DNA of 64,000 bases from an uncultured Desulfobacterales bacterium (lineage in GTDB: Bacteria; Desulfobacterota; DSM-4660; Desulfatiglandales; HGW-15). The DNA is taken from the NCBI GenBank assembly GCA_964647905.1, contig CAZYJR010000020.1, positions 577 to 64,576 of the forward strand, in the 5' to 3' direction. A model generated the notes under the pieces. It made no database searches. It saw nothing but the letters and a program-made list of their open reading frames with translations, and was not told the DNA's origin. Position numbers and translations under genes: made by a program. Shown here piece by piece: positions 43,084 through 63,990 of the stretch; position 1 is the first letter of the stretch; each line of letters begins with the position of its first letter.

Positions 43084-43092
43084 GGGGTTTCC

Positions 43093-46894: not shown

Positions 46895-46896
46895 AC

Positions 46897-47337: not shown

Positions 47338-47408
47338 TACCCAATAAACCACTTGACAACATGACCTCTAAAATGTGCACGTGAATGCACATTATAAGGA
47401 GATATGAT

Positions 47409-47642: not shown

Positions 47643-47950
47643 AACTAATAACAGATTCATCTGCTCTATCAAAAAGATATGTACTTGAAGCCGGCAGTGA
47701 TAAAATAAATCAGTTTTTACAGAATGCCTCACAATTAGGTTTATGTACCATTTTAGTGTCTGAAATAATATCCGCTCTAAATCGGAGACGTCGAGAAAAG
47801 ATTTTAGCATCAAATGATTATCGGACAATAAAAAGACAATTGATGGAAGATGTCCATGATGCAGTCATGCTTCAAGGGACGCCTTCTGTTATTTCTCATT
47901 CAGTAAGACTTTTCCTGAGTTTTAGGTACCGCTGCCTCGGTAGGTTATAA
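47639..47950 (+). CDS. vapC: PIN-domain toxin VapC, probably 3'-truncated
   Basis: MKLITDSSALSKRYV..(Asp6)...ILVSEIISAL (Glu). At 103 aa the distal acidic PIN residues are missing. The reading frame ends 20 nt before the IS fragment. Confidence 0.6.
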   Translation: MKLITDSSALSKRYVLEAGSDKINQFLQNASQLGLCTILVSEIISALNRRRREKILASNDYRTIKRQLMEDVHDAVMLQGTPSVISHSVRLFLSFRYRCLGRL

Positions 47951-47969
47951 CTCCCTGCAACCATTGATA

Positions 47970-48582: not shown

Positions 48583-48626
48583 AAATTGGTTGACTGGTGT
48601 TTACGAATAGTATACTTATCAAAGCA

Positions 48627-49208: not shown

Positions 49209-49260
49209 TTTTTTTTGCCCGGCGGGTTTACAAATTGTAAACAAACCGGAGGTGATCAAA

Positions 49261-50184
49261 ATGGACAAGCTCATCATCACGGCGGCCATCACCGGGGGGG
49301 CGTCTCCGGATTCGAATCCCTATCTTCCCAAGACGCCCAGGGAGCAGATAGAGGCCACTGTCGAGGCCTGGGAGGCGGGCGCATCGGTGGTTCACCTTCA
49401 TCCCAGGAACCCCGAGACAGGGAAGGGCGAGAACAAGGCCGAGTGGTATGCCGAGGCTGTCCGGGGCATAAAGGAGCGCTGCGACATAATCGTGAACGTC
49501 TCCACCGGCGGGGGCACCGGGAGACGGGTAGACGGGGACTGGCTGTACAAGGAGATACCGGAAGAGTCGGTCAAGGGCCGGATAGGCGTCATCCCAAAGC
49601 TCGCCCAGGACCCCATGACAAAACCCGACATCGCGTCTTTCAATGCCGGATCCCCGGTCATCGACATCTACAATAAGAAGAGCCGGGAGTTCCTGCTCAA
49701 GTTCGTCATGGTGCAGAGCTTTCCGGACATGGTCCACATGGCCGAGGTGATGAAGGAGCGCGGCGTCAAGCCCGAGCTCGAGTGCTACGATACGAGCATG
49801 ATCAATAACTGTAAGGTGCTGGCCGAGCTCGGTTATCTCGAGGAGCCGCTGTACTTCCAGTGCGTCCTGGGCGTGTTGGGCCAGATACCGGCGAGCGTGG
49901 ACAACCTCAATCACATGGTCCGGAACATCCCCGAGGGCACACCCTGGTCGGTCTGCGCGGTCGGTTTGAACGAGTTCCCCATGACCACAGTAGGCATGAT
50001 CATGGGGGGACACGTCCGTGTCGGGTTCGAGGACAATATCTACATCTCCAAGGGAGTTCAGGCAAGGAGCAATGCTGAGCTGGTGGAGAAGGTGGCGCGG
50101 ATCGCCAAAGAGCTGGACCGCGAGATTGCCACGCCAGCGGAGGCAAGGTTCCTCCTTGGACTTCCACCGAAGGGGCCCACTTGA
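49261..50184 (+). CDS. BKACE-family enzyme (3-keto-5-aminohexanoate cleavage enzyme family, DUF849)
   Basis: The ATG at 49261 follows GGAGGTG. MDKLIITAAITGG, VHLHPRNPETG, ELECYD, GGHVRVGFEDN are classic BKACE TIM-barrel motifs. Confidence 0.85.
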   Translation: MDKLIITAAITGGASPDSNPYLPKTPREQIEATVEAWEAGASVVHLHPRNPETGKGENKAEWYAEAVRGIKERCDIIVNVSTGGGTGRRVDGDWLYKEIPEESVKGRIGVIPKLAQDPMTKPDIASFNAGSPVIDIYNKKSREFLLKFVMVQSFPDMVHMAEVMKERGVKPELECYDTSMINNCKVLAELGYLEEPLYFQCVLGVLGQIPASVDNLNHMVRNIPEGTPWSVCAVGLNEFPMTTVGMIMGGHVRVGFEDNIYISKGVQARSNAELVEKVARIAKELDREIATPAEARFLLGLPPKGPT

Positions 50185-50197
50185 TCGGGGGGATGTC

Positions 50198-50947
50198 ATG
50201 GAGGACTCCATTCTCGTTGAAGCCCGGGATATCTGTAAGAATTTCGGAGGGCTTCATGTGCTCACGGATGTGAACCTGGAGGTGAAGAAGTCCAGCATTC
50301 ATTCCATTATTGGACCCAATGGGGCCGGGAAGACCACACTCTTCAACCTACTCACTGGCGTTTACCCAGTCTCGAGTGGCGTGTTCCTATTCAAGGGAGA
50401 GGACATCACGAACCTCCCTGCCTACCGGATCTCCAGAAAAGGCATAGCGAGGTCCTTCCAGATTACGAGCATCTTCCCCGAGCTCTCCGTGTACGAGAAC
50501 ATAAGGGTGGCAGCACAGAACACGGCTCATGGCTCGGCCAACTTTCTCATGCCCTATACCCGGCTAGGGCACGCGCTGGAAAAGGCGGATGAGGTCGTGG
50601 AGATGATAGGGCTCGAAAAAAAGAGATCCCTTGTTTCGCGGAACCTCTCTTACGGCGAGAAGCGGATCCTCGACATAGGCATCTCCCTTGCCACAGAGCC
50701 CGAGCTGATCCTGCTGGACGAGCCCATGGCCGGACTGCAGTCCGCGGACATGCAGTGGATGATGAAGCTGGTGGAGAGGATCTCCTCCAGGCTCACAGTG
50801 ATCCTCATCGACCACAATATCGATCTGGTGGTGGCCCTTTCAGACAGGATCACGGTCCTGAACCAGGGGCTGGTAATCGCCGACGGCAGGCCGGCGGAGA
50901 TCCAGGACAATGAAAAGGTTCAGCAGGCTTACCTGGGAGGATACTGA
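50198..50947 (+). CDS. Branched-chain-amino-acid-type (HAAT/Liv) ABC transporter ATP-binding protein, LivG-like
   Basis: GPNGAGKTTLFNLLTG, LSYGEKRILDIGISLATEPELILLDEPMAG. The start is reassigned to the ATG at 50198. Confidence 0.9.
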   Translation: MEDSILVEARDICKNFGGLHVLTDVNLEVKKSSIHSIIGPNGAGKTTLFNLLTGVYPVSSGVFLFKGEDITNLPAYRISRKGIARSFQITSIFPELSVYENIRVAAQNTAHGSANFLMPYTRLGHALEKADEVVEMIGLEKKRSLVSRNLSYGEKRILDIGISLATEPELILLDEPMAGLQSADMQWMMKLVERISSRLTVILIDHNIDLVVALSDRITVLNQGLVIADGRPAEIQDNEKVQQAYLGGY

Positions 50948-50949
50948 CC

Positions 50950-51645
50950 ATGCTGACCCTCAGGGACATCAACAGCTACTATGACGAAAGCCACATACTC
51001 AAGAGTCTTTCCATGGAGATCGGCCGGGGGGAGACCGTGACGCTCCTGGGCAGAAACGGGGCGGGCAAGACTACCACGGTCAAGACTATAATGGGCCTGG
51101 TTACCCCCAGGTCCGGCTCGGTCATCCTCCAGGGCAGGGATGTGACAGGGCTAAGTCCCCACAAGATCGCCAAGCGCGGGGTGGGCTACGTGCCCGAGGA
51201 GCGGGGCATCTTTCCCAGCCTGACGGTGCTTGAGAACCTCTCACTCCCGGTCTGGGGCCGGGGGGAGGAAGGCTGGCCTCTCGAAAAAATCTACGAGGTC
51301 TTCCCAGTGCTTGAGACGCGTCGCGGGCACCGGGGTTCCAAGCTCAGCGGGGGCGAGCAGCAGATGCTGGCCATCGCCAGGATACTGCACGCCCGGATAG
51401 AGCTGATCCTGCTGGATGAGCCCACCGAGGGCCTGGCACCACTCCTGGTACGCGCCATAGGCTCCATTATCGGCGAGATAAAGGAAAGCGGCCTCACCGT
51501 GCTGCTCATTGAGCAGAACACCAGGTTCGCGTCCAGGGTGGCGAACCGCCACAACATCCTCTACGGGGGCGGCATCGTCTACAGCGACACCAATGAGGCC
51601 TTCTGTAGCGCACACGATGTACAGAAGGGGTACCTGGGTGTCTGA
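50950..51645 (+). CDS. HAAT/Liv-type ABC transporter ATP-binding protein, LivF-like
   Basis: GRNGAGKTTTVKTIMG, LSGGEQQMLAIARILHARIELILLDEP. Confidence 0.9.
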   Translation: MLTLRDINSYYDESHILKSLSMEIGRGETVTLLGRNGAGKTTTVKTIMGLVTPRSGSVILQGRDVTGLSPHKIAKRGVGYVPEERGIFPSLTVLENLSLPVWGRGEEGWPLEKIYEVFPVLETRRGHRGSKLSGGEQQMLAIARILHARIELILLDEPTEGLAPLLVRAIGSIIGEIKESGLTVLLIEQNTRFASRVANRHNILYGGGIVYSDTNEAFCSAHDVQKGYLGV

Positions 51646-51761
51646 TCGAGGAGATCGCATCACCCAGCAGGTCTCGGAGAGGAGGTGAGACAGGGAAAAG
51701 GCCAGTCCGCGCAGTATGCGTAACCACGGAAAGAGATCACCAGCAACAAAGGAGGAATCCC

Positions 51762-52961
51762 ATGTTCAAGAAAACCATGATAGGAGCCGTAAGTATTCTT
51801 GTGCTCGTGACAGCGACGGCCGTTCCCGCCTTCTCCGCGGATACGGTCAAGGTGGGCCTCGTGAGCGTTCTCTCCGGACCGCTTGCTGTCATAGGCAATG
51901 GTGAGAAGTGGTCCGCCGAGATGGCCATCGAGGACTACGGGACAGTGCTGGGCAAGAAGATCGAGCTCATCGCCAGGGACCACGCCTACAACCCGGGCGT
52001 TGCCAATGAGAAGGCAAAGGAGCTTTACGAGAAGGAAGACGTGGATGTCATTGTTGCATGTCCCAACAGTGCCGCGGCCCTGGCCGTAGCGGAGCAGGCC
52101 CGGCTTCACAAGAAGCCCTTCATCTCCACCTCCGCCGGGACCACCGACCTCATAGGGAAGAAGTGCAACAAGTACGTCATCAAGTGGAACTACAACGACT
52201 ACATGCTTGCCACGACGGTCGGGCTCTGGGGGGCCGACAACCTGGGAAAGCGATGGTACACCATCACCTCCGACTACGCTTGGGGTCACGATCTCCTCAA
52301 GCATTTCACGGCTGCGCTGAAGGAGAAGGGAGGCGTCCACGTGGGCAACGATATGGTGGCCCTCGGGACCTCGGACTACAGCCCCTACATTCTCAACGCA
52401 ATGAACGCCGACCCGGACGTCCTGGTCCTGCTGAACGTGGGGAAGGACGCCGTCAACTCTGCAAAGGCGGCCATGGAGTATGGCCTGAAGAAGAAGGCCA
52501 AGATAGTGCACGCTCTCCTTTTCGAGCCCAACATCAAGGGGGCCGGCCCAGAGGTCTTTGCGGACAACTACGTGGCCGCATCCTGGAACTGGAAGGTGGA
52601 CTACCCCGGGGCGCGGGAGTATGCGGACAAGTACTTCGAGCGGCACGGCGAGCGTCCACATTTCATGGCAGCGGCTGTCTACAGCGCCACCTGGCAGTAT
52701 CTGGAGGCCGTGAAGCGGGCTGGGAGCACGGATCCGGACAAGATCATAGCGGCCCTGGAAGGGCACACCTTCAGGGATATGTTCGCCGATCCCGGGTACA
52801 TCAGGCCCGGAGACCACATGCAGGTGGGCAAGGCCCTGCTTCTGCGGGCCAAACGTCCGGATGAGATAACCGAGCAGGACGATTACTTCGAGATTGTGGG
52901 CACCCTCCCGCCCGAAGAGGCCTTCGGTGAGGAAGGGCAGTTCGGCTGCGACCTCGAGTAG
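51762..52961 (+). CDS. HAAT/Liv-type ABC transporter periplasmic substrate-binding protein
   Basis: Signal peptide MFKKTMIGAVSILVLVTATAVPAFSA, then DTVKVGLVSVLSGPLAVIG (type I PBP, LivK-like), 399 aa. Confidence 0.9.
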   Translation: MFKKTMIGAVSILVLVTATAVPAFSADTVKVGLVSVLSGPLAVIGNGEKWSAEMAIEDYGTVLGKKIELIARDHAYNPGVANEKAKELYEKEDVDVIVACPNSAAALAVAEQARLHKKPFISTSAGTTDLIGKKCNKYVIKWNYNDYMLATTVGLWGADNLGKRWYTITSDYAWGHDLLKHFTAALKEKGGVHVGNDMVALGTSDYSPYILNAMNADPDVLVLLNVGKDAVNSAKAAMEYGLKKKAKIVHALLFEPNIKGAGPEVFADNYVAASWNWKVDYPGAREYADKYFERHGERPHFMAAAVYSATWQYLEAVKRAGSTDPDKIIAALEGHTFRDMFADPGYIRPGDHMQVGKALLLRAKRPDEITEQDDYFEIVGTLPPEEAFGEEGQFGCDLE

Positions 52962-52974
52962 CCGTCATATGAGC

Positions 52975-53007
52975 CGGAAGGAGAGAGGGCGCGCCCCTCT
53001 CCTTCCG
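52975..53007 (+). terminator. Strong intercistronic stem-loop immediately after the substrate-binding-protein gene (partial terminator / mRNA stabiliser)
   Basis: CGGAAGGAGAG(A)GGG-CGCG-CCCCTCTCCTTCCG forms a 14-bp stem with one bulged A and a CGCG tetraloop. It starts 14 nt after the stop. No T-tract follows. Confidence 0.55.
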
Positions 53008-53045
53008 ACAACAAAGAGAACCCTTCACTTGCAGGGCCCCATAAC

Positions 53046-53924
53046 ATGACTGCTCAGTTTCTGTTTATGCAGCTCTTCAACGGGCTGATTATGGGTTCCA
53101 TCTATGTCCTCCTCTCCCTAGGGCTGACGATCATATTCGGAACCCTGGGGGTGGTCAACTTCGCCCACGGCGCGCTTTACATGCTGGGAGCCTACGCGGC
53201 CTACACCGCAGTAAGCCTCCTGGGGCTCCCCTTTTTCGCAGCCATCATCTTGTGCCCCGTCCTGGTGGGCGTTATCGGCATAATACTGGAAAAGACCCTT
53301 GTGAGTAAGCTCTACGACCTGCCCCATTTCTACAACCTGCTTTTGACCTTCGGCATTATGTTCGCCATACAGGACGGAATCAAGATCATTTACGGGCCCG
53401 AGGGGGAGCCTTTCAACATCCCTGACGCCCTTTCCGGCGCCGTGAACCTAGGGTTCATGTACTACCCCAAGTACCGCCTTTTCATCATCGTCCTGACCGC
53501 AGCGCTGGCATTCGGGGTATGGTTCTTCATCGCCAGGACCAAGCTCGGGGCTATTATCCGCGCAGGGACCGACAACAGCGAGATGGTCAGCTCCCTCGGC
53601 ATAAACATCTCCAGAACGTTTACCCTGGTGTTCGGGTTGGGGGCGGTGCTATCAGGGCTTGCCGGTGTTCTCTCAGCACCGCTCCAGAACGTGCAGCCCC
53701 TCATGGGAATGGACATCCTCGTCGAGACCTTTGTAGTGGTCATCATAGGCGGAATGGGGAGCATAGGCGGCTCCATCCTGGCGGGCCTGATCATAGGGGA
53801 GCTGGTGACCCTGGGGATCATTTTCTGGCCGCCCATGGCCAACACCCTCATATATGCTTTCATGGCCTTTATTCTCATCATCCGGCCGCGTGGTCTTTTC
53901 GGCCGTGCCGAGTTCTTCGAGTAG
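53046..53924 (+). CDS. HAAT/Liv-type ABC transporter permease, LivH-like
   Basis: 292 aa polytopic protein: LFNGLIMGSIYVLLSLGLTIIFGTLGVVNFAHGALYMLGAY. Confidence 0.9.
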   Translation: MTAQFLFMQLFNGLIMGSIYVLLSLGLTIIFGTLGVVNFAHGALYMLGAYAAYTAVSLLGLPFFAAIILCPVLVGVIGIILEKTLVSKLYDLPHFYNLLLTFGIMFAIQDGIKIIYGPEGEPFNIPDALSGAVNLGFMYYPKYRLFIIVLTAALAFGVWFFIARTKLGAIIRAGTDNSEMVSSLGINISRTFTLVFGLGAVLSGLAGVLSAPLQNVQPLMGMDILVETFVVVIIGGMGSIGGSILAGLIIGELVTLGIIFWPPMANTLIYAFMAFILIIRPRGLFGRAEFFE

Positions 53925-53939
53925 ACGAGGCGAGCACAA

Positions 53940-54866
53940 ATGGAAAAGAGAAGCCCGCATCTGTATTGGATGGCACCGGCCGCAGCGATACTGCTCCTGG
54001 CACTGCCCTTTATCACGCCCTACAAGGCGCTTGCCAGCCAGATGCTCATCTTCGCCATCTTCGCCATAGGGTATGACATCTGTTTCGGCTACACAGGCCT
54101 TCTCTCCTTCGGGCACGCGGCCTTTTTCGGTCTTGGAGCCTACGCCACCGGGCTCAGCCTGATCCATCTGGCCGTACCCGCGCCTGTGGGCCTTGTGTTC
54201 GGCATCCTGGTGAGCGTAGCTGCGTCCTTTGTCATAGGCCTCTTTTCGATCCGCCGGCACGGGATCTACTTTGCCATGGTCACGCTGGCCTTCGGCCAAA
54301 TGGTCTATTTCATCGCATTCAAGTGGCGGGCGGTTACAGGGGGAGACGACGGCCTGCACGGTGTCCCGAGACCGGCCCTGGGGCCGATCGACTTCACGTC
54401 CGAACTCGTCCTCTACTACTTCATCCTGCTCTGCTTCGTCCTGGCGCTCCTTTTCGGAATTCGGATCATTAACTCGCCGTTCGGAAAGACCCTGGAATGC
54501 CTCAGGGAGAACGAAGCCAGGGCCAAGAACATCGGTTACAACCCCAGGTTCTTCAAGCTCACCTCGTTTATGCTCTCAGCCTCGTTTGCTGGCCTTGCAG
54601 GAGGGCTCTACGCCCTGCTCCAGAACTTCGTGCCCCTGTTTGCGCTGCACCTCGACACCTCCGGCGACATAGTCCTGATGACCCTCATAGGCGGCATGGG
54701 GACGCTCTACGGCCCCATTATGGGGGCCATGGGGCTGGTCTATATGAAAGACCTCCTGAGCTCCCATACTAACGTCTGGCCTCTGATACTGGGGCTTCTG
54801 TATGTGGTATCGGTCATGGTCTTCAGGAAGGGGATCTTCAGGGCATTGAAGAACAGGATCATGTAG
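53940..54866 (+). CDS. HAAT/Liv-type ABC transporter permease, LivM-like
   Basis: 308 aa polytopic protein: FAIGYDICFGYTGLLSFGHAAFFGLGAY. Confidence 0.9.
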   Translation: MEKRSPHLYWMAPAAAILLLALPFITPYKALASQMLIFAIFAIGYDICFGYTGLLSFGHAAFFGLGAYATGLSLIHLAVPAPVGLVFGILVSVAASFVIGLFSIRRHGIYFAMVTLAFGQMVYFIAFKWRAVTGGDDGLHGVPRPALGPIDFTSELVLYYFILLCFVLALLFGIRIINSPFGKTLECLRENEARAKNIGYNPRFFKLTSFMLSASFAGLAGGLYALLQNFVPLFALHLDTSGDIVLMTLIGGMGTLYGPIMGAMGLVYMKDLLSSHTNVWPLILGLLYVVSVMVFRKGIFRALKNRIM

Positions 54867-54944
54867 GGGGGCGGTGTCTTAATCCCGCCGCGCCTGCTTT
54901 CACGGCAAACGCTCACCGGAACACAAGATAGGGAGGTTCTGTAC

Positions 54945-55892
54945 ATGTCCATACTCATTACCGGAGGATGCGGCTTCATCGGCGTGAACCTGGCGCGCGT
55001 CTATCTGGATAAGGGCGAGAAGGTGGTCATCCTCGATTCCGCGCCCGAGGAATGGCTCCCCCACGATCTCAGGGGCCAGGCGCGCTACATTCAGGGGGAC
55101 ATCACCAACTGGGTGGAGGTGGTGGACGCGGTCAAGGACAACCAGGTCAGGGACATATTCCATCTGGCGGGCATTCTTTCGGCCCCCTCCGAGGCCAACC
55201 CCTCCCGTTCCTACCGCGTAAACGTGGAAGGAACCTTTCACGTCATGGAGGCGGCCAGGATTTGCGACGTCAAAAAGGTTCTCTTTTCGAGCTCCATGGG
55301 GGTTTACGGCGTTTCGCGAGATCAGGTGGTCACCGACGACACCATCCAGCAGCCTAACATCATGTACGGCGTCACCAAGGCCTTTGACGAGCTCCTGGGC
55401 AGGTACTACTCCCTGCGCTACGGGATCGACTTTCGCGGCATCCGGTTCCCCCAGCTGGTAGGTCCGGGCGTCCGCTCGGGCGGGTTCGGCCAGTACAACC
55501 CCGGGATGATCGAGGCGGCCGCGGCCGGCAGGCCTTACGAGGTCTGGGTGCCCGAGGAGACCGTTGTTCCACTTCTCTACATCAAGGATGCGGTCCGGAG
55601 CCTGGAGCTCCTCTATGAGGCCGATCCCTCCGGCATCAAGACCCGGAGCTATAACCTGGGACAGATCACCCCCTCACCCACGGCCCGCAAACTGGCCGAC
55701 ATCGTAAAGAGGTATGTGCCCGGGGCGGAGATCACATTCAAGCCGGACCCCCGCGCCGTGGAGGTGATCCAGTCCATCCCCGCCACGATCGACGGGAGCA
55801 ATGCCAGCAAGGAGTGGGGCTGGCATATCCTCTACAGTGCCGAAGACATGGTCAGGGATTTTCTGGACGAGCTGAAACGGGGAAAATCGTGA
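54945..55892 (+). CDS. NAD-dependent epimerase/dehydratase-family (extended SDR) protein
   Basis: MSILITGGCGFIGVNLA Rossmann motif and the catalytic YGVTK (YxxxK). Confidence 0.85.
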   Translation: MSILITGGCGFIGVNLARVYLDKGEKVVILDSAPEEWLPHDLRGQARYIQGDITNWVEVVDAVKDNQVRDIFHLAGILSAPSEANPSRSYRVNVEGTFHVMEAARICDVKKVLFSSSMGVYGVSRDQVVTDDTIQQPNIMYGVTKAFDELLGRYYSLRYGIDFRGIRFPQLVGPGVRSGGFGQYNPGMIEAAAAGRPYEVWVPEETVVPLLYIKDAVRSLELLYEADPSGIKTRSYNLGQITPSPTARKLADIVKRYVPGAEITFKPDPRAVEVIQSIPATIDGSNASKEWGWHILYSAEDMVRDFLDELKRGKS

Positions 55893-56854
55893 GCGATGCA
55901 ACGACGATCTTGAGAAACGGGCGTGTGGCGGTTGCGGGGGTGGGGCTCATGGGGCACGGCATAGCCCAGGTCTTCGCCCGCAGCGGCTGTCGCGTAAACC
56001 TCTACGATGTGAGCGAGGGTATCCTGAACAAGGCGCTCCGGAGCATCGAGAGAAACCTGGAGACCTTTGTAAGCGAGGGCCTTGAGACCGATTCCAGCGC
56101 AGGATGGGCCCTCTCCCGCATTAGGCCGGTGCTCGACCTCGAGCACGCGGTCCGGGAAGCCGATTTTGTGGTGGAAGCGGCCCCCGAGGACCCGGGAATC
56201 AAGAGGGATCTGTTCACCAGGCTGGACGCCGCCGCACCCGGACATGCAATCCTAGCCAGCAACACGTCCATGCTCTCCATATCAGAGTTCGGGGCGGGCT
56301 GCCGGGGAAGGGATCGCCATGTTATAACCCACTGGTTCAACCCTCCACATATCGTCCCGGTGGTGGAGGTGGTGGCCGGTGATGAGACCTCGGACGAGAC
56401 GGTGGAGATCACCCTGGCCCTGCTGAAGGCCGCCGGCAAGAGTCCTGTAAGGGTGAGAAAAGAGATCCCCGGCTTTTTGGTGAACCGCATCCAGACGGCC
56501 ATGTTCAGGGAGGTGCTCTCTCTCCTGGAGCAGGGCGTGGCCTCGGCTGAGGACATCGACACCGCGATCAAGGGGAGCTTCGGCCTGCGCTTGGGGGCCG
56601 TCGGGGTGCTGGAGACCATGGACATGGCCGGGCTGGACCTCATGCTGAACGGGACTGCGCACCTCTACCGGCACATCGAGAGCACGGACAAGCCCCAGAA
56701 GATCCTGGAGGAGAAGGTCTCCAAGGGGGAACTGGGGGTCAAGACCGGCAAGGGGTTCTACTCCTATGGCTCCCCCGCCGCTGAGGGTGACTCCAGGGAG
56801 GCGATCGATGCCAGAGACAGGAGGCTGCTTCGCCTCCTGAGGGCACGTTCTTAA
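55889..56854 (+). CDS. 3-hydroxyacyl-CoA dehydrogenase (NAD-binding, HBD-like)
   Basis: The proposed GTG start at 55889 overlaps the upstream stop (GTGA). VAVAGVGLMGHGIAQVFARSG, ASNTSMLSI, HWFNPPHIVPVVEVV. Confidence 0.85.
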   Translation: MSDATTILRNGRVAVAGVGLMGHGIAQVFARSGCRVNLYDVSEGILNKALRSIERNLETFVSEGLETDSSAGWALSRIRPVLDLEHAVREADFVVEAAPEDPGIKRDLFTRLDAAAPGHAILASNTSMLSISEFGAGCRGRDRHVITHWFNPPHIVPVVEVVAGDETSDETVEITLALLKAAGKSPVRVRKEIPGFLVNRIQTAMFREVLSLLEQGVASAEDIDTAIKGSFGLRLGAVGVLETMDMAGLDLMLNGTAHLYRHIESTDKPQKILEEKVSKGELGVKTGKGFYSYGSPAAEGDSREAIDARDRRLLRLLRARS

Positions 56855-56873
56855 TCAACCCGGTGCGGCCATA

Positions 56874-57029
56874 GCGGAGCAGATCTTCGGAGGCCTGGAA
56901 TGGCTTGCAGCCATGCGCTACTACAAGGGCGAGCGGATGGTAGCATACTACGGCTACTACAGTAATGTTTACGGAGGAAGACGGAAAGCCAAGGGGGAAG
57001 ACGATCTCATTCATAGGCTCTTCTTATGA
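56874..57029 (+). pseudogene. IS91-family (Y2-transposase) C-terminal remnant
   Basis: A short open frame reads ..IFGGLEWLAAMRYYKGERMVAYYGYYSNVYGGRRKAKGEDD.. This matches the ..F.PLEFLA.L..HIP.KG...VRYYG.YSN..RG.RK.. tail of IS91-family transposases, with an apparent internal deletion. No start codon is present. Confidence 0.45.
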
Positions 57030-57120
57030 GCCGCAGGGGCCTCGACAATCGCTTGCATTTGGTCCATGCTAGTACACGAATTCAGGGTCCTGAAGAGGAC
57101 CGAATCGCGGGAGGCGGGGC

Positions 57121-57948
57121 ATGAACCAAGGGGAGATCGGGATATACGTGAACGAGAGGCCCATGTCGGTCGAACAGGGCGCGACCGTCGGCGAGTTGCG
57201 GGACCGGGTGAAGCCCGGGGCGGACGTCCTGGTGGTGAACGGTTTCCCTTCGGAGTCCGAGACCGTGATCCGGGAGCGGGACAAGGTGGTCCTGATCAAG
57301 AGGGGGGAGAGGCCTTCCCGCCGGGAGCTGGAGATCCTCATGGCCGCCAGGCACACACCCGGAGTGCACGAACGGATGCGGGAGGCGCGGGTGGGAGTGG
57401 CCGGACTGGGCGGGCTGGGCTCTTCGGTGGTGATCGCCCTGGCCCGCATGGGGGTGGGGGAGCTGGTGGTTGCGGACTTTGACGTGGTGGAGCCGAGCAA
57501 CCTCAACAGGCAGCAGTATACAGTGGATGACATCGGCATGCCCAAGACCGAGGCAATGTCCCGGCAGGTGGCGGTTATCAATCCTTGTGTAAGGCTCGAG
57601 GCCCACCGGGTGGTGCTCGAGCCGGGAAACATCCCCGAGGTCTTCTCAGGGGTGGAGGTGCTGGTGGAGTGCCTGGACAGGGCCGAGGCCAAGGCCATGT
57701 TCATAAGGGCCGCTTCTCAAGGCCTGCCCGGTACGTTTCTGGTCGGCGCCTCGGGTGTTGCCGGGTACGGTGACGGGAATTCGATCCGTACCGTTCGCCT
57801 GGGGGACCAGGTCTTCATGACAGGGGATATGGTGAGCGCGGCCCAGCCGGGCAGGGGGTTGATGGCCCCCCGCGTAGGAATAGCGGCCCACCATCAGGCC
57901 GACATGGTGGTCAGTCTCCTCATGGAGGGTCAAGAGACTAGGCCTTGA
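57121..57948 (+). CDS. thiF: ThiS-like ubiquitin-fold domain fused to ThiF (sulfur-carrier adenylyltransferase)
   Basis: The N-terminal ~65 aa is ThiS-like (IYVNERPMSVEQGATVGELR...VVLIKRG). The E1-like domain follows: GVAGLGGLGSSVVIALARMGVGELVVADFDVVEPSNLNRQQY. Confidence 0.85.
   Translation: MNQGEIGIYVNERPMSVEQGATVGELRDRVKPGADVLVVNGFPSESETVIRERDKVVLIKRGERPSRRELEILMAARHTPGVHERMREARVGVAGLGGLGSSVVIALARMGVGELVVADFDVVEPSNLNRQQYTVDDIGMPKTEAMSRQVAVINPCVRLEAHRVVLEPGNIPEVFSGVEVLVECLDRAEAKAMFIRAASQGLPGTFLVGASGVAGYGDGNSIRTVRLGDQVFMTGDMVSAAQPGRGLMAPRVGIAAHHQADMVVSLLMEGQETRP
57861..57925 (+). repeat. Direct repeat copy 1 (last ~22 codons of thiF); attL-like
   Basis: A 65-nt block has 62 of 65 positions identical to 62928-62992. 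Looser similarity continues to ~57950. The motif ATCAAAAGCTTGTGG follows at 57952-57966. Confidence 0.8.
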
Positions 57949-58061
57949 GGGATCAAAAGCTTGTGGCCTGCGGTTTCCTGGTGCGCTAGCCCGAGTTTCC
58001 TTCTTATCGTGAGGCAAGCCGGTATTATCTGAATAATCAGGATGATACGGCATGCCTCGCC

Positions 58062-58313
58062 TTACCCTAAAACCTCGATTTTGTCTTTGCTGAGGCCCAA
58101 AATCGCCAGGATCCGGTCTTGTAGCTCCGAGGTCTTCGTCAGTACGGTTTGCTGGCGCGCGGCCTTCTTCCCCCGCTTTTTGGGGTAGACGTTGATCACT
58201 TCCCGAATCGTATCGAGTTCTGTGAGGAAGCGCGGCATGGACAAGGTCAGACCGGCCCGGCTCACACGCCTCAGAGCCAATGCCCTCAGCAACAAGGCGA
58301 TCGTGCAGTACAA
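58062..58313 (-). pseudogene. IS1634/IS4-like transposase C-terminal fragment
   Basis: The 83 aa ORF ends ..LTELDTIREVINVYPKKRGKKAARQQTVLTKTSELQDRILAILGLSKD. It has the same C-terminal architecture as the intact transposase at 59505..61199. The catalytic region is missing. Confidence 0.55.
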
Positions 58314-58382
58314 ACAGTGGACGCGGATTTTCGGAATCCGTCCAGTGGTGAAGCGGCCACCAGCTCCCGGTCCGCCGCTCCT

Positions 58383-58883
58383 TTATGAACGATTATCCTC
58401 GCCAACGATTTGCAAAGCAGCCGTGATTATATTATCGGACACTCTAAACCCGTTTGAGCGAAGCGCCAATAACAAAGGCTCCACCTTTGAGGTCAGGCCC
58501 TTTTTTTTGGCTTTTATTATGATGGCTATTGTTCCAACAATGCTGATATTAAAGACCTCAGCACATTTCTTCGCTGCCTTGTCATCTATCGCGGCTGCAA
58601 AATCCTTGTTCTGAAAGGCAAAAGCGATGACCTGGGATTCACCTTTGCCGAGGTTCCACTCAAATATTATTGCCGGAACTTCTATCCTCCTGAGCTTTGC
58701 CTGATAATCCTGGGCTTTGAGCCATTCAATAGCCGGATCATGCTCCTTATGGGCATTTATTTCCTCAAAAACACCCTCCGGGATAACGAGTTGTTCAAAC
58801 AAGCCCGACAGAAAATCAGCGCAGCCGATTTTGGCAAGGGATATAATCGGAGAAGCATTGACTACAAGCTTATCCGACTTCAT
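58383..58883 (-). CDS. DUF3368-family PIN-like nuclease (putative toxin)
   Basis: LVVNASPIISLAKIGCADFLSGLFEQLVIPEGVFEEI is the DUF3368/PIN-like N-terminal pattern. It overlaps the upstream UPF0175 gene by 14 nt. Confidence 0.7.
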   Translation of the reverse strand: MKSDKLVVNASPIISLAKIGCADFLSGLFEQLVIPEGVFEEINAHKEHDPAIEWLKAQDYQAKLRRIEVPAIIFEWNLGKGESQVIAFAFQNKDFAAAIDDKAAKKCAEVFNISIVGTIAIIIKAKKKGLTSKVEPLLLALRSNGFRVSDNIITAALQIVGEDNRS

Positions 58884-59115
58884 CGATCAACTCCTCAGGC
58901 GTGAGTTGATAAGGTGAAACTTTATGTTCATATAAATGCTCAAGAAATTCCTGCCGTGATATATCGGCGATTTCAGCAGCCTTGGACTGAGAAATTCTGC
59001 CGTCCTCATACCATTTGACCAGGGCTGTTATTTTCATTGATCGGACAAATTCAGCAGGCGTCTGTTTGAATGCCGCAAACGCTGTGTCCGGCACATCTAC
59101 TGTCAATTGTGTCAT
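58870..59115 (-). CDS. UPF0175-family protein (putative antitoxin partner of DUF3368)
   Basis: 81 aa: ..KITALVKWYEDGRISQSKAAEIADISRQEFLEHLYEHKVSP.., the characteristic UPF0175 HTH-like core. Confidence 0.7.
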   Translation of the reverse strand: MTQLTVDVPDTAFAAFKQTPAEFVRSMKITALVKWYEDGRISQSKAAEIADISRQEFLEHLYEHKVSPYQLTPEELIDEVG

Positions 59116-59479
59116 GGGTCAGGCCCTCCTGAAATTATATAATCCAATATCCATTTGATATACAACTTGGATTTCGCTCTTTGAAAATGGCCGTTCTTCT
59201 TTTTCGTGCTGAATTTGGTTCATCGACGCGGAAAGAGGGATTCTCAAAATCCGCTCCGGAACCGGCCGTACCGCATCCCTGGGCACAGGCTGGCATGAGG
59301 GCGAAGTTGTCAAGGCCATGCGCCTTCTGGGTTGGCTCCGCCAAGCCTTGACAGGCTTGCCTGGCTCGTGCCCTGCAGAATTGCGGGCGATGGGCGGGAT
59401 GCTCCTTGTCATTGGGTCGTCTGCCAAATTCCGGTTCAAATGTCGAAGAGGCATATTCATTTGATCTAGGCCCAACCAG

Positions 59480-61400
59480 TTATTGTTCTAATTGCATTAG
59501 CTGCTTAGCTGCTTTTAGAAAGATATTGGTATGTATAGCATTCCTCCGGAACATCAAGTATCGATAGAATATCGCGCTGTAGCTCGTTAAGCTTGGAAAC
59601 GAAACCATATAATTTACCATCAGGAAGATTCATTTCTCCCTTCACAACGAATTCGAACTCTTTAAGAAGATATTCGGTCCTTGGCTTTCGCACATTTTTT
59701 CTGTTTGGCATGAAGTCATCAAGGCCTTTGTCCCTTTCGTTGATATTTTTTCTTGCTGTTCTCTCGATCAAGACAATGACTTGTAGGGCGATTTTAAAGA
59801 GTAGTAATAGTGCTTCAATTCGCTCAGGTGTATGGAGATAAATTGGCTCAAGGTTATAACTACTTTTAACTCTTCGGTTGATGTGCTCACTTTTGTATTG
59901 GTTCTTATGGGCCATCATTGCATCAGTGATAGATAGATCCTCTTGCGGCTTGTTTGTTATAAGGGGATAATACCCGCAGTAATATAGTTCACTTTCATAT
60001 GCTTTTTCGTCGAAGAGCAGTTTTAAACTGAAGTGATCGTTCACAACTTCAGTTTTTTGCGGAAGGTTGTTTTTTGAGGGACGCCCTCTCTTGGCATTCT
60101 TATATGATATAGTAGGATTATTGATTATATTGTATTCAAAAAAACCTGATGTATGATGCTTTTTTAAAACTTGGTCACATGCTTTTTGAATACTTTCTTT
60201 AGTTTTTAGGTTGTATTTATTCAATTTATTGCTAATTTCATTGAATGCAATGCGTGTTTTTTCTATGCGAGCATCAATCGTTTTGCGTTTCCTGGCAGAT
60301 AAAGCCTGATCATAAAGAATGATCATTCGGAAAGCGTACTCCTTCTCCTCATGTGTCACACGGAGAGGAACTTCAAAACCACGATTCATTTGTTCTTTGT
60401 ACGGTATAAGAACTTCTTGTTTGTGCTGTTCCAATGCTTCATTAAGTGCATTTTTATAGGTGTCATACATCGGTGCTGGCGCAATGAAGAACCCCTCGTT
60501 GTCGTGTATATGCGCCATATTGTCTTTGGTGATGAGTTTTGAGTCGGCAACATAAAGAAAATCACGGTTACCCAAAAGGTCGATTAGATTGTTCCATTGC
60601 TCAACATATGTCGTCACATCTGCGGTGTTTCCACTGTAAGCCTTTTGAAATAATGGGAATGCACTGTCAGAGCTGACAGACAATGACCAGACTAGCTGCT
60701 TCAAATCTTCGCGATACTTTTTGCTGTACCCAAAAGAGATTTTGATACTCTCATTGGTTCTATTTTTGTCACAGTTGCCGTAAACGGAAGCCGAAGTAGT
60801 ATCATTATGGCAAAGCTTTGATTGAATTTCAAATTCTTCGATCATGCGCTGGGTTAACTGCGTTTCAAGGTTCTCAATGCCATAACCGTATACAGCATCT
60901 AATGTATCAGCTAATCGATCATCGAAGTATTCATAGTGTGGTATATCAGGATAGATGGTTTCAAGGACTGTAGTCTTCTTTGCAAACTTGCAAAGTCTAT
61001 AAAGTTGCAATACCTGAAACATAACACCCGTAATCATGGCGACACAGGCTTGCCCATGAGAGAGCACTTTCCTCCTCGGATCAAGTGGCACGTTTTCATC
61101 AATGATCTCAGCGATGCCGCATCTTTCGAAGTAATGTTGGAGTATGGGGGCAAAGCCAACGCCTTTGGTCTCAACGTCTTCCAGTATGCCTTCGGCCATC
61201 GGTAGGGTATCCTTTCCTTGGAATTTTAGAAGGATACCCTGCCATAATGAGAAGAAGGTGTCCAGAAGCCTTACTATCGATTACGGCCTTTTAGAGAAAC
61301 TTATGATCCTCAACCGCTCAAAAACTCGATTTTTAGCTGTTTTTCAGCCAAAAGCTAAATTTCCTAAACGACCAAGAACAAAGAGCGAAATGTGAGATAC
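59480..61400 (-). mobile_element. IS1634-family insertion sequence (ends not resolved)
   Basis: The span covers the transposase gene plus AT-rich flanks. The truncated SBP pseudogene ends at 61449, suggesting the upstream IS end lies at ~61400-61445. I could not identify terminal inverted repeats by eye. Confidence 0.5.
59505..61199 (-). CDS. IS1634-family (IS4-related) DDE transposase, apparently intact
   Basis: 564 aa from an AT-rich gene. The N-terminus GFAPILQHYFERCGIAEIIDENVPLDPRRKVLSHGQACVAMITGVMFQVLQLYRL is typical of IS1634-type transposases. FLYVADSKLITKDN marks the DDE Asp region. Confidence 0.85.
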   Translation of the reverse strand: MAEGILEDVETKGVGFAPILQHYFERCGIAEIIDENVPLDPRRKVLSHGQACVAMITGVMFQVLQLYRLCKFAKKTTVLETIYPDIPHYEYFDDRLADTLDAVYGYGIENLETQLTQRMIEEFEIQSKLCHNDTTSASVYGNCDKNRTNESIKISFGYSKKYREDLKQLVWSLSVSSDSAFPLFQKAYSGNTADVTTYVEQWNNLIDLLGNRDFLYVADSKLITKDNMAHIHDNEGFFIAPAPMYDTYKNALNEALEQHKQEVLIPYKEQMNRGFEVPLRVTHEEKEYAFRMIILYDQALSARKRKTIDARIEKTRIAFNEISNKLNKYNLKTKESIQKACDQVLKKHHTSGFFEYNIINNPTISYKNAKRGRPSKNNLPQKTEVVNDHFSLKLLFDEKAYESELYYCGYYPLITNKPQEDLSITDAMMAHKNQYKSEHINRRVKSSYNLEPIYLHTPERIEALLLLFKIALQVIVLIERTARKNINERDKGLDDFMPNRKNVRKPRTEYLLKEFEFVVKGEMNLPDGKLYGFVSKLNELQRDILSILDVPEECYTYQYLSKSS

Positions 61401-61448
61401 AATCTTAATATATCATAAGTACGCGCTCAGGCAACAGTCAATTCGTAG

Positions 61449-61751
61449 TCAGTAGTCGGTGGCGAAGTATGAGGCGGTTTCCGCGGTTTTCTTGTGGGGG
61501 AAGGAGGCGAACACCTTGCCGCTGCGGACCCGGTGCCCGCAGGCACCCCACGTGGCAAACGTGAAGGCCGTGTCAAGACCGGACGCCGCGAATGCCCGGC
61601 GAACCACTTCGGCCGTGAAGCCGCAGTCCGGAAGCTACTTGGAAACGTACGGGTCCCACTCTCCGGTCGCGATGGTGACGGTCTCCGCCGCCGCCGAAAA
61701 CCCGAACAACTGAACGGCGCACACCAGCAGAACGGCCCATTTCATCCTCAT
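61449..61751 (-). pseudogene. Solute-binding protein (family-3/PAAT-like) 5' fragment with an internal TAG, truncated next to the IS
   Basis: Minus-strand translation gives MRMKWAVLLVCAVQLFGFSAAAETVTIATGEWDPYVSK-TAG(61635-61637)-LPDCGFTAEVVRRAFAASGLDTAFTFATWG.... This shows a signal peptide and the ATGEW.PY motif of SBP_bac_3 proteins. Only about 100 codons remain. Confidence 0.6.
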
Positions 61752-61788
61752 GAGTAGTTGGTTTCGCCCTGATCCCCAAACCGATTGG

Positions 61789-62238
61789 CTACTCCATTTC
61801 CCGTAATTTGGCCAGATCGGAGCGGTCCTGGCTTCGGTTGGATATCTCCTTTGACTTGATCAAGTTGGCCCGGTCAATGAAGTTCACCGTCTGTCCACCA
61901 TAGGCCCCTTGAACCCGGTTTTCCCAGATCTTCCTGAAATCGAGGCCTTTCAGCGAGGTAATGATGTCGATTCGAACAGGCTCGTATCCGAGTTGGACGA
62001 TTTTGTCCGGTGTGGAGAAATCGTCGGGAGTCAGGTCCAGTGACCCGAATCCGAAGTCCTGGAGGGCGCGCAATATCTTTTCCGCGTTTTCGAAGCTGGC
62101 TTCAACAAGAATGTCGATGTCCTTCGTATATCGGGGTTCCACATGATAGGCTAAAGCAAAGGCGCCGATAATGCAGTACTTGACGTTATGCTTGTTCAAC
62201 AACGCTAAGAACTCTTCGTAGTCTTTTTCCGTTTTCAT
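61789..62238 (-). CDS. Nucleotidyltransferase-fold protein (TA-associated type, family not resolved)
   Basis: 149 aa: ..YCIIGAFALAYHVEPRYTKDIDILVE.. is the G.(x)n.DxD NTase pattern. Confidence 0.55.
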   Translation of the reverse strand: MKTEKDYEEFLALLNKHNVKYCIIGAFALAYHVEPRYTKDIDILVEASFENAEKILRALQDFGFGSLDLTPDDFSTPDKIVQLGYEPVRIDIITSLKGLDFRKIWENRVQGAYGGQTVNFIDRANLIKSKEISNRSQDRSDLAKLREME

Positions 62239-62389
62239 CCGGGACCACCCCCGAAGCCCCGAAATGGGCCTCCCGCAGAAACTGAACGGTCTCTACCCGT
62301 TGGGCTGCGGTCATGCTGTTGTAGTATTGCCTGTCAAACCTGTCGGCCGCTGCGAACGAGTCTGCCTTGTTTACCCAGATTATTTTCAT
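62186..62389 (-). CDS. Small hypothetical protein upstream of, and overlapping, the nucleotidyltransferase gene
   Basis: 67 aa, MKIIWVNKADSFAAADRFDRQYYNSMTAAQRVETVQFLREAHFG... It overlaps the NTase ORF by 53 nt in another frame. The partner role is inferred from position only. Confidence 0.4.
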   Translation of the reverse strand: MKIIWVNKADSFAAADRFDRQYYNSMTAAQRVETVQFLREAHFGASGVVPDENGKRLRRVLSVVEQA

Positions 62390-62927
62390 AACTAACCTAT
62401 AACATTAACTTTTATGGATATCAACCCATAAACGCGGAATATCGCGATGGCGTAACCGGACCCTGCCGTCCCTTCCTTCAGGGATCCCCGTAACACCGTC
62501 GGCGTTGAGGTGCATGGTGAACACCGACGGGTCTTCGGGGCGGATCGTGCCGACGGCGTCGTCCATAGACTCGTCTGCAGGTTTCCATGATCAACCCATA
62601 CCCTTGAAACCATGGATGTCAAAATCCATCTCGGGATTCACGGCATGGGTCCGCATTTTTCCGACTCTTCCAGATTTTGAATTGAATGATTTCGATTGTA
62701 GCACTCAGACCCCTAAATTTCCATATTAACCCTAAGCTTCCTGAAAATCGACCAAAGTCAAGCCAGGACCGAAGAAAATGAGCCATTTTGGTTAGTACAA
62801 CAATATGTAGTGGTCAGGAAAAAGCTCGTTGGGGTGAGGGTGGTGTGTACGAGGAAGTGAACGCCGTTTGATGGGGCATTTCGAAGAACAGGGATGGCAA
62901 GGGATCCACATCAAAAAGCTTGTGGGT

Positions 62928-62992
62928 GATGGCCCCCCGCGTGGGCATGGCGGCCCACCATCAGGCCGACATGGTGGTCAGTCTCCTCATGG
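62928..62992 (+). repeat. Direct repeat copy 2 (orphan thiF 3'-end-like sequence); attR-like
   Basis: 62 of 65 positions are identical to 57861-57925. All three differences fall on third codon positions of the thiF frame (GTA/GTG, GGA/GGC, ATA/ATG). It is preceded by ATCAAAAAGCTTGTGG at 62910-62925. Confidence 0.8.
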
Positions 62993-63014
62993 CAAGAGGC
63001 CAGGCCCTGAGGAG

Positions 63015-63266
63015 TCAGGTGCCCAACTCGACTGTCCGGTGGGGTCTCGGGGGGCGGAGCTCAAAGACCGCATCCGGTATACGGCGGTTGAACGCGATCT
63101 TCTCGTTTCTGAACCGGACCCCGCCGCGGCCGGGGACGCGCATGTCCACTTTTTCGGCGTACGCTGTTCCGTCCTCCTCGGTGAACCCCTGAAAGGACGC
63201 CTTGAATCCGGTTTCAGTGAACACCACCTCCCTCGGATTCCGCCCCGCAGGGCCGCCTACCACCAC
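63015..63266 (-). CDS. LolA/LolB-like (DUF4292-like) C-terminal domain; probably the 3' part of a longer, disrupted gene
   Basis: ..FKASFQGFTEEDGTAYAEKVDMRVP...IAFNRRIPDAVFELRPP resembles the C-terminal strands of lipoprotein-sorting-fold proteins. The same frame stays open upstream to ~63500 (..DPRTAWAFLRGYPELPDDWAVSEIKHDRFLV..) without a convincing start. Confidence 0.35.
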   Translation of the reverse strand: MVVGGPAGRNPREVVFTETGFKASFQGFTEEDGTAYAEKVDMRVPGRGGVRFRNEKIAFNRRIPDAVFELRPPRPHRTVELGT

Positions 63267-63516
63267 CCAACGGCCGGGCGACCCTGTCCCGCTCGTGACC
63301 AGGAACCGGTCGTGCTTTATCTCCGAGACGGCCCAGTCATCCGGGAGTTCGGGGTAACCGCGCAGGAAGGCCCAGGCCGTGCGTGGATCCGGGGACCCGG
63401 GCAGAAAGCGGTCCGTGGAGTGAGGCGGCCTTCTCCAGGTGCTCGAGGGCCTTTTCGTATTCGCCCTTCTGGAAGTAGACCCAGCCCAAACTGTCTACTA
63501 TATAGCCGCTCTCCGG

Positions 63517-63990
63517 CTACAACTTCAGAGCGTGGGTTATCAGGTCCAGGGCCTCGTTCAACCTGATTCCCTTCTCCGCATACGTGTAGCCGATATAGTT
63601 GAGCGCGTCCGCATGATCGGGCTGGATCTCCAGTACCCGCCTCATCTGTTCGATGGAGACGTCCCTCTGCCCCGATTTGTCCAGGATTACCCCCAGGCGG
63701 AACACCATCTCGGCATTGTCCGGGTGGCGGCCAAGGCACCTCTCCAGCACCTCGCGCGCCTCCTCATACTTCTCCCGTCCCTCCAGGGTGGAGGCCAGCA
63801 TCAGGTAGATCTCGCTTTTGTCCCGGTTCTTGGCCAGGGCCTCCCTGAGGACCTTTTCGGCCTCAGCCGGTTTGTCTCTGGAGTCCAGGATATAGGCTAT
63901 ATGCATCTGGGCGTTCAGATAGTACTCGGAGTCCCCTGGTATCGCCCTGAAGTGATCCAGGGCCTCTTCGGCACGCGCGTGGTCCCCCAT
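63517..63990 (-). CDS. Tetratricopeptide-repeat protein (5' end beyond the window); ends at a TAG that looks premature
   Basis: TPR repeats run throughout (..AEAEKVLREALAKNRDKSEIYLMLASTLEGREKYEEAREVLERCL..). After the TAG at 63517-63519 the same frame continues with TPR-like PESGYIVDSLGWVYFQKGEYEKALEHLEKAASL. Confidence 0.7.
   Translation of the reverse strand: MGDHARAEEALDHFRAIPGDSEYYLNAQMHIAYILDSRDKPAEAEKVLREALAKNRDKSEIYLMLASTLEGREKYEEAREVLERCLGRHPDNAEMVFRLGVILDKSGQRDVSIEQMRRVLEIQPDHADALNYIGYTYAEKGIRLNEALDLITHALKL

Follow-up and report, generated by a model that had tools for sequence, protein, structure and literature searches.

The 3' end of thiS-thiF occurs twice in the DNA analysed here (hereafter the window: 64,000 nucleotides of contig CAZYJR010000020.1, assembly GCA_964647905.1, from an uncultured Desulfobacterales bacterium). 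One copy completes the intact thiS-thiF fusion gene and the other stands 5 kb downstream, at the far edge of an insert of foreign composition. Our preferred explanation, to which we give a probability of about 0.45, is that foreign DNA integrated long ago into the thiS-thiF 3' end at a hotspot, and that this is the decayed scar of that event, with attL- and attR-like ends. The incoming DNA would have brought a copy of about the last 30 thiF codons, and recombination inside the shared segment would have kept the gene whole (copy 1) and moved the native 3' end 5 kb away (copy 2). The coordinates of all features are listed in Table 1.

The repeated thiS-thiF 3' end and its junction

The ungapped part of the repeat, found by a repeat search of the window, aligned 57857-57925 with 62924-62992 (65 of 69 positions identical, spacing 5067). 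The match of 62 of 65 positions between 57861-57925 and 62928-62992 given in the preliminary description was reproduced, with mismatches at 57876 (A/G), 57879 (A/C) and 57882 (A/G). Two sub-blocks within the repeat are identical, 57860-57875 (16 nt) and 57883-57925 (43 nt). The 43-nt block, which equals 62950-62992, was present exactly twice in the window and not at all in shuffled sequences. Weaker similarity beyond a 5-nt indel, also described before, was recovered between 57931-57948 and 62993-63010 (15/18), and this tail score was matched by 0 of 2000 shuffles.

Copy 1 corresponds to the last 30 codons of thiS-thiF, beginning at the conserved LMAPRVG codons and running to the stop codon. 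That the similarity ends precisely at the stop codon is new relative to the preliminary description. The 38 nt 3' of copy 1 were unrelated to the sequence 3' of copy 2 (p = 0.9), and the sequences 5' of the two copies were likewise unrelated. These limits fit the prediction for a coding 3' end. The gene itself is of full length when compared with 6923 homologues of 266-289 aa (coverage 96-100%). The repeat was found to be no dispersed family, with two copies in the window, none in viral contigs and none in metagenome contigs. Copies 1 and 2 agreed at 61 of 64 positions, while any available relative agreed at only 46-55 of 64; by this comparison, both copies are thiF 3' ends from one narrow lineage.

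All three mismatches of the ungapped core fall on third codon positions in the thiF frame, as had been described: GTA/GTG (V/V), GGA/GGC (G/G) and ATA/ATG (I/M). With the tail included, third positions account for 5 of the 6 substitutions (binomial p about 0.02). The earlier conclusion that both copies evolved as coding sequence holds as far as the third-position bias is concerned, but with six substitutions only, a duplication within the genome followed by divergence is compatible with the same pattern. At all six substituted positions, copy 1 has A or T where copy 2 has G or C. The variant codons of copy 1 are minor ones in this genome (GTA 8%, GGA 15%, ATA 29%, ACT 5% and CCT 14%), and those of copy 2 (GTG, GGC, GCC and CCC) are the major ones. 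GC content at third codon positions (GC3) was 0.70 in the last 30 codons of thiF versus 0.84 in the remainder. Taken together, the A/T-only variants of copy 1, its minor codons and the drop in GC3 are suggestive of AT-richer DNA as the source of copy 1's distal part, and they would place the exchange near the 16-nt identical block 57860-57875. Copy 2, in turn, shows decay: 5 nt have been deleted, and an Ile codon has become Met; ATG was present at this I/V codon in 0 of 171 thiF homologues, which have Ile, Val or Leu.

More distant relatives (ThiF identity 65-72%) keep the gene order FBA-HD-moaA-thiF, followed by a convergent lipoprotein gene and then TPR, sigma70 and TyrRS. This conserved order marks both flanks of the insert as core genome. 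In the window, only 4 nt separate the stop codon of copy 2 from that of the lipoprotein gene, the latter at 63015-63017. In L084, a relative with 67% ThiF identity, thiF and the lipoprotein gene overlap directly by 37 nt with nothing between them, an arrangement resembling an empty site. Because copy 2 stands 4 nt from the lipoprotein stop, where thiF itself sits in L084, it is the native 3' end of thiF, now displaced from the gene; this end has kept its original place, and the 5 kb was inserted upstream of it.

The length of the junction, counted between the stop codons of thiF and the lipoprotein gene, differed greatly among relatives. It was -37 nt in L084, 184 nt with a TrmO fragment in L079/L080, about 760 nt in L218, 1.7 kb with TrmO, DUF423 and TspO in L081/L138, 3.2 kb with a periplasmic binding protein (SBP; SBP_bac_3) and a PAS histidine kinase in L085-L087, and 5.07 kb with a mosaic of insertion sequences (IS) and toxin-antitoxin (TA) genes in the window. 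The earlier suggestion of a recombination hotspot is independently supported by this range and by L085-L087, which have a repeat-flanked insert of their own. There, a 29-nt direct repeat of the thiF tail (L085 10817-10845 and 14041-14069, 25/29 identical, 0/1000 shuffles) flanks the insert. The ancestral thiF tail, homologous to that of L084 up to the stop codon, was left beside the lipoprotein gene, and the insert provides a new 7-codon tail. The repeat-flanked inserts in the window and in L085-L087 thus indicate that two lineages received independent insertions into the thiF 3' end. The L085-L087 insert contained no mobility genes, only the ordinary SBP and histidine kinase genes. A non-coding stretch of 600 nt in L085 (10871-11471) carries hexamer repeats of the GATCCC/GATTTC type.

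A second short motif had been described at the inner edges of the repeats, and both copies, ATCAAAAGCTTGTGG at 57952-57966 and ATCAAAAAGCTTGTGG at 62910-62925, were confirmed as the only two in the 64 kb. The hexamer GGGATC was found 5' of both motif copies, at 57949-57954 and 62901-62906. The pairing at the inner edges was non-random, being reached by 7 of 2000 shuffles in one test and 0 of 2000 in another. An IS terminus or a dispersed repeat was rejected as the identity of the motif, which lies outside the IS fragment and has two window copies only. Across 2 Mb of related loci, no copy of the motif occurred in the neighbourhood of thiF, and no inner-edge motif was present in the L085 insert. 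If the insert were circular, one motif copy would stand on each side of the thiF-like segment, and a role as arm-type or accessory recombinase-binding sites is a reasonable guess from this layout. A 7-nt inverted repeat, CCACCAT-N9-ATGGTGG (57889-57911; 9 nt with one mismatch), lies within the 43-nt identical block; it resembles a core-type recombinase site, is made of His-His and Met-Val codons, and could be coincidence.

The insert (57949-62923, 4975 nt) has a GC content of 0.468 compared with 0.608 for the remaining window, in agreement with the description of the enclosed DNA as AT-richer. GC3 was 0.40-0.67 in the cargo genes and 0.78-0.84 in core genes. The insert is compositionally foreign and a mosaic, with GC blocks ranging from 0.40 to 0.63. 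All of the contents described before were present, namely two TA-like pairs, a full-length IS1634-family transposase, a C-terminal fragment of another IS1634-family transposase and a truncated SBP gene. No similarity was found between the insert and plasmids.

A proposed integration scar and its alternatives

Most likely, the proposed integration would have been carried out by an integrative island's site-specific integrase, of the tyrosine type, and the integrase gene would have been lost later as IS insertions, TA modules and deletions overwrote the island. Copy 2, by then non-coding, would have gained the 5-nt deletion and the Ile-to-Met change. The motif pair GGGATC..AAAAGCTTGTGG would represent element-borne sequence on either side of the attP core. 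The cargo of IS debris and addiction or defence modules is typical of islands. The structure behaves in the way of the att scars that genomic islands leave in tRNA and housekeeping genes, and the explanation is an ordinary one.

A site-specific recombinase had been proposed in the preliminary description as the maker of the repeat; no integrase or fragment of one, no related element with an att site like thiF and no empty site in a close relative were found. An integrase gene is expected beside attR, that is, around 62390-62900; searches of all open reading frames (ORFs) of this stretch against Pfam (E up to 5), PHROGs and NCBIfam gave nothing relevant, and the stretch had no second copy in the window. 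The earlier statement that the insert holds no integrase agreed with the Pfam, NCBIfam and PHROGs results for its ORFs. No ORF of 57949-62923 matched any recombinase family, including permissive scans of 62390-62923 and 59116-59504. Because the defining recombinase was sought and not found, the insert could be assigned to no family of integrative elements.

Other types of mobile DNA were considered as well. Nothing in the way of a tRNA, an Rfam RNA, a terminator or an unusual DNA structure was found at the junctions. With respect to integrons and clusters of attC sites lacking an integron integrase (CALIN), no IntI-like ORF was found, and a general repeat search, made without an attC model, gave no notable intergenic inverted repeats. 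Tn7-like insertions carry tnsABC(D), a 5-bp duplication and multiple terminal TnsB-binding repeats. Tns-like genes were absent according to Pfam and NCBIfam, and the duplication is 92 nt, not 5 bp.

The lineage-specific pattern of the repeat core had 0 matches in viral and metagenome contigs. Nine viral-contig matches to a looser pattern were discarded as chance matches, and in metagenomes the looser pattern returned 120 ordinary thiF loci with no second copy. Contig L208, a candidate for an isolated thiF fragment, was discarded because of a scaffold gap. When genome contigs were scanned with ThiS-ThiF, the relatives found reached 63% identity at most, and their thiF surroundings lacked synteny. 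L079 was rejected as an empty site, since the TrmO fragment in its spacer marks it as a deletion derivative of the L081 arrangement.

Several of the results weigh against the integration scar. Integrase, excisionase or fragments of them were absent from the insert in any frame tested, and viral contigs, metagenome contigs and thiF loci yielded no related element in which an att site resembles thiF. Such structures are rare elsewhere, as a second thiF 3' end was found in 0 of 52 genome loci and 0 of 120 metagenome loci. No genome in the collections was close enough to serve as a true empty site, and the nearest ThiF in a search that covered 5.8 billion proteins was 78% identical and located on a 1.3-kb contig. 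The nearest ThiF with gene context, P0283 (MFP3928207.1), is encoded on a 7.2-kb contig of a Desulfobacteraceae MAG. Att cores span 2-60 bp in the literature (PMC4701971), and the repeat, at 92 nt with an identical block of 43 nt, is long by comparison. The absence of mobility genes from the L085 insert means that the hotspot may need no dedicated recombinase, and the origin of both copies in one narrow lineage is compatible with a duplication within the genome. Polarising the substitutions by outgroups gave an ambiguous result, as relative L167 also has GGA ATA, which matches copy 1 at two of the three codons.

Among the alternatives, the one that survives best is a homology-driven or illegitimate insertion at a permissive hotspot, without a dedicated recombinase. 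Related-strain DNA with a thiF 3' fragment, for example in circular form, could have entered by a single RecA-type crossover, or duplication and insertion could have taken place during repair, and the repeat would persist only since one copy keeps thiF whole. The agreement between the copies, far above that with any relative, is in line with this route, as are the 43-nt identical block, which is sufficient for homologous exchange, and the lack of a recombinase in the insert. The same is true of a junction that varies in size in every lineage examined, and of the L085-L087 insert, which is flanked by repeats and yet contains ordinary genes. However, this route leaves the exact last-30-codon content of the incoming DNA unexplained, as well as the significant motif pair that flanks the segment in circular form. 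Moreover, 92 nt of homology is short for efficient RecA-dependent integration. On balance, we regard an insertion of this kind as rather unlikely.

It is improbable that the functional thiF came with a 21.8-kb accessory block (41165-62923), copy 2 being the rest of a mostly deleted native thiF. Such a block would fit the 16 kb of DNA (with defence-like genes, BrnT/BrnA and an IS1634 fragment) that separates moaA from thiF, which are adjacent in relatives. It would also fit the accessory DNA on both sides of thiF and the partial deletion of the genes to the right of copy 2. However, the divergence of ThiS-ThiF (67-72%) resembles that of the core neighbours (moaA 69%, HD 68% and FBA 77%). The body of thiF is host-like in GC3 (0.84), with the last 30 codons alone atypical, and most of the 16 kb is host-like in composition and consists of ordinary metabolic genes. 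There was no moaA 3' remnant upstream of thiF, and the motif pair would be left unexplained.

Little credence is also given to a dedicated hotspot at the convergent thiF/lipoprotein junction of this Desulfobacterales-like clade, where a special mechanism would add thiF 3' duplications of 29-92 bp. If this were true, the agent could be a trans-encoded recombinase that reads the near-palindromic GGGATC..AAAAGCTTGTGG, or very long staggered cuts as in transposition. thiF would then always be intact, and the inserts of the window and of L085-L087 would each have arisen independently in this way.

A long target-site duplication by an IS1634-family element, later broken by further insertions, was absent from the preliminary description and was tested here. 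A fragment of this family lies 37 nt from copy 1, the insert holds a full-length transposase gene of the same family, both copies are of the same lineage, and long variable duplications are on record for the family (PMC2266710). The duplication is nevertheless disfavoured because the IS terminus (57986) is 37 nt away from the repeat, and nothing after copy 2 corresponds to this stretch (p = 0.9). No IS end or transposase N-terminus was found beside copy 2 (62923), and the full-length element is at least 1.2 kb from either copy. The repeat also terminates exactly at the stop codon, and its differences, biased to third positions and A/T versus G/C in one direction only, are not what neutral decay of an identical duplication predicts. 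We therefore consider a target-site duplication very improbable.

The remotest alternative is an assembly artefact, a misjoining of two strain alleles of the thiF 3' end in a metagenome contig: although the source is apparently a 67-kb contig derived from a metagenome, strain alleles would likewise differ at third positions and the independently assembled Logan contig L222 stops at 62877, short of the copy 2 junction, element DNA meets mid-thiF coding sequence at 62923/62924 without any shared k-mer as long as those used in assembly (the motif has only 12-16 nt), the 5-nt deletion of copy 2 and its lack of upstream thiF mean that it is no second full allele, and the insert interior (61215-62877) is exactly reproduced in L222.

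Contents of the insert and the flanking regions

Table 1. Features at the thiS-thiF 3' end, in the insert and in the right flank (window coordinates).
Feature	Coordinates	Strand	Basis or composition
thiS-thiF fusion gene, intact, 275 aa	57121..57948	+	Pfam ThiS-like E = 4.9e-18, ThiF E = 8.1e-32
Repeat copy 1 (attL-like), thiF 3' end including TGA stop, 92 nt	57857..57948	+	Repeat search, alignment
Spacer, 37 nt, from thiF stop to IS fragment; motif A = GGGATC + AAAAGCTTGTGG	57949..57985	+	GC 0.61
IS1634-family transposase C-terminal fragment (ISx), +1 frameshift near 58333	57986..58390	-	GC 0.56
DUF3368 (PIN-like) toxin candidate, intact	58383..58883	-	Pfam E = 8e-13; GC 0.447
UPF0175 antitoxin candidate, intact, overlapping the DUF3368 gene	58870..59115	-	Pfam E = 9e-23; PADLOC PDC-S70 partner
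Stretch without identifiable gene, about 390 nt	59116..59504	.	GC about 0.54; ORFs without Pfam match
Full-length IS1634-family transposase gene, 564 aa	59505..61199	-	NF033559 E = 1e-75, profile 11-482 of 483
SBP_bac_3 periplasmic binding protein, N-terminal fragment, in-frame stop	61449..61751	-	Six-frame translation
Nucleotidyltransferase (AbiEii/DUF2204/DUF6036-like), intact, 149 aa	61789..62238	-	Pfam; PADLOC AbiEii weak
67-aa partner ORF overlapping the nucleotidyltransferase start	62186..62389	-	Gene call also in L222
Stretch without recognisable gene, 534 nt	62390..62923	.	GC 0.49
Motif B, GGGATC-CAC-ATCAAAAAGCTTGTGG, abutting copy 2 with a 2-nt overlap	62901..62925	+	
Repeat copy 2 (attR-like), displaced native thiF 3' end, TGA retained at 63008-63010	62924..63010	+	
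Convergent lipoprotein gene, C-terminal half only	63015..63422	-	tblastn with L084/L081/L085 proteins
TPR protein gene without its last ~59 codons, in-frame TAG at 63517-63519; conserved right flank	63415..63969	-	

As shown in Table 1, the insert begins with the spacer and the transposase fragment ISx. The latter was recognised from a match to NCBIfam NF033559 at 58062-58313 (profile 414-482 of 483) and from homologues P0121-P0161. A three-way alignment with L089 and L221 placed its outer terminus at 57986: the conserved GGAAACTCGGGCTAG lies at an equal distance from the stop codon in the window, L089 and L221, and the sequences diverge beyond it. ISx recurs in other metagenomes (L090 1174-1479, L091, L089 and L221) as C-terminal fragments only, of 58-185 aa. 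L090 and L091 show 88.6% DNA identity and are cut at the identical internal point (MKDR of the YREK motif), beside pyrF. This truncation point could be a recombination-prone point or could indicate a mobile sub-element.

The DUF3368/UPF0175 pair (58383-59115, GC 0.45) matched the PADLOC candidate system PDC-S70 from end to end, with E = 2e-52 for the DUF3368 gene over profile positions 1-161 of 161. The stretch without identifiable gene that follows may include one end of the neighbouring IS. A candidate 25-nt inverted repeat was detected at 59171-59195 and 61367-61391. The ends of the full-length IS could not be defined because this repeat is only 80% complementary. The transposase also matched Pfam DUF4277 and DDE_Tnp_1, and its gene is located within a block of GC 0.40 (about 59470-61440).

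The SBP fragment is host-like in GC (0.63-0.65) and in tblastn was 36% identical to the L085 SBP over a length of 77 aa (E = 6e-11). This fragment and L085 11472-12224 are of one SBP_bac_3 subfamily, on opposite strands; its likeness to the gap gene of L085-L087 is either coincidence or the mark of a remnant of an older gap resident. The nucleotidyltransferase had 1876 homologues, most of them of 149 aa. Its 67-aa partner had no family match in Pfam or NCBIfam, and the pair (61789-62389) has a GC content of 0.52. L222 (SRR7048219) was 100% identical to 61215-62877 without a single difference. It ends at 61215 in a 14-nt hairpin just upstream of the transposase start and at 62877, 33 nt short of motif B. 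These ends are consistent with branching of the assembly graph at the IS and near the repeat.

To the right of copy 2, the lipoprotein remnant covers residues about 120-265, compared with proteins of 260-270 aa in relatives. The TPR remnant showed 60-65% identity to residues 324-535 of the relatives' proteins of 567-594 aa (tblastn). The two remnants are joined at 63415-63422, which implies that ~550 bp, with the TPR 3' end and the lipoprotein 5' end, were deleted. A 90-aa ORF with a TTG start (62920-63192, plus strand) passes through copy 2 in the thiF frame and then, because of the 5-nt deletion of copy 2, runs antisense into the lipoprotein remnant. This ORF is almost certainly not a gene and could be mis-annotated as a ThiF-like protein.

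To the left, moaA and thiF, which are 10-35 nt apart in relatives, are separated by 16 kb in the window (41161-57120). In this region, an FtsK/HerA-type ATPase matching PADLOC SspH (E = 6e-45) is accompanied by an AAA_16 ATPase and by a 340-aa ORF of unknown nature. A BrnT/BrnA pair of low GC (46598-47097) follows, then a fragment that may be PIN-like (47639-47950) but has no family match, and then a second IS1634 C-terminal fragment (47970-48359). The region ends with genes for an HTH-cupin regulator, BKACE, a Liv-type ABC transporter, an epimerase and a 3-hydroxyacyl-CoA dehydrogenase. An IS91-like fragment at 56855-57030 was rejected, as it had no Pfam support. Neither a repeat flanking the 16-kb region nor a moaA 3' remnant was found there. 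With this region upstream and the insert downstream, thiF stands between two accessory regions. In L036, a 24-nt exact inverted match to its own thiF 3' region was observed 8 kb downstream (19108-19131), and it may belong to a second paralogue of the ThiF/MoeB family.

Relation to known systems and significance

Elements with tyrosine recombinases integrate at the 3' ends of housekeeping protein genes and leave flanking direct repeats, usually of 2-60 bp, as exemplified by the integrative and conjugative elements (ICEs) as well as integrative and mobilizable elements (IMEs) of Streptococcus at rplL and rpsI (PMC4701971). Like such islands, IMEs and ICEs, the insert lies at the 3' end of a conserved gene that is intact, its direct repeats hold the 3' end of the gene with the original end displaced to the far junction, and its AT-richer cargo includes TA modules and insertion sequences. 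Unlike them, it has no integrase, excisionase or transfer gene, its repeat of 92 nt exceeds the usual length, and sister elements were not found. The searchable literature yielded no description of thiF as a target of integration.

IS1634 and IS1549 of the IS1634 family generate target duplications of 8-514 bp (PMC2266710). The window is similar in having IS1634-family sequences inside the insert and a repeat of ~90 nt, which is within that range. In contrast to these duplications, the repeats abut no IS terminus (a gap of 37 nt on the left and no IS end on the right), their limits are those of a codon block and a stop codon, and their divergence is not of the type of a decaying duplication.

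The locus also shares features with the junkyard hotspots of defence and TA genes. Content varies between the same core genes, from -37 nt to 5 kb, the cargo comprises the PDC-S70 candidate, the AbiEii-like nucleotidyltransferase pair and IS debris, and a second accessory region (SspH-like, BrnT/BrnA) is located just upstream. Such hotspots are usually defined by the flanking core genes alone, whereas the inserts of the window and of L085-L087 are also bracketed by the duplicated 3' end of the upstream gene.

For annotation, the thiF-like ORF 62920-63192 should be treated as a remnant, and the adjacent lipoprotein and TPR genes as broken. If the integration scar is the right explanation, thiF would be one more housekeeping gene with a 3' end that integrative DNA uses as a landing site, and the case illustrates how an att-like scar can outlast its recombinase. 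A new mechanistic question would arise only if the hotspot works without an element-encoded integrase. The hotspot behaviour common to the window and L085-L087 is the one aspect worth further attention, and under the scar explanation the thiF/lipoprotein junction would be a useful marker of the flux of accessory (TA or defence) genes in uncultured Desulfobacterales-like bacteria.

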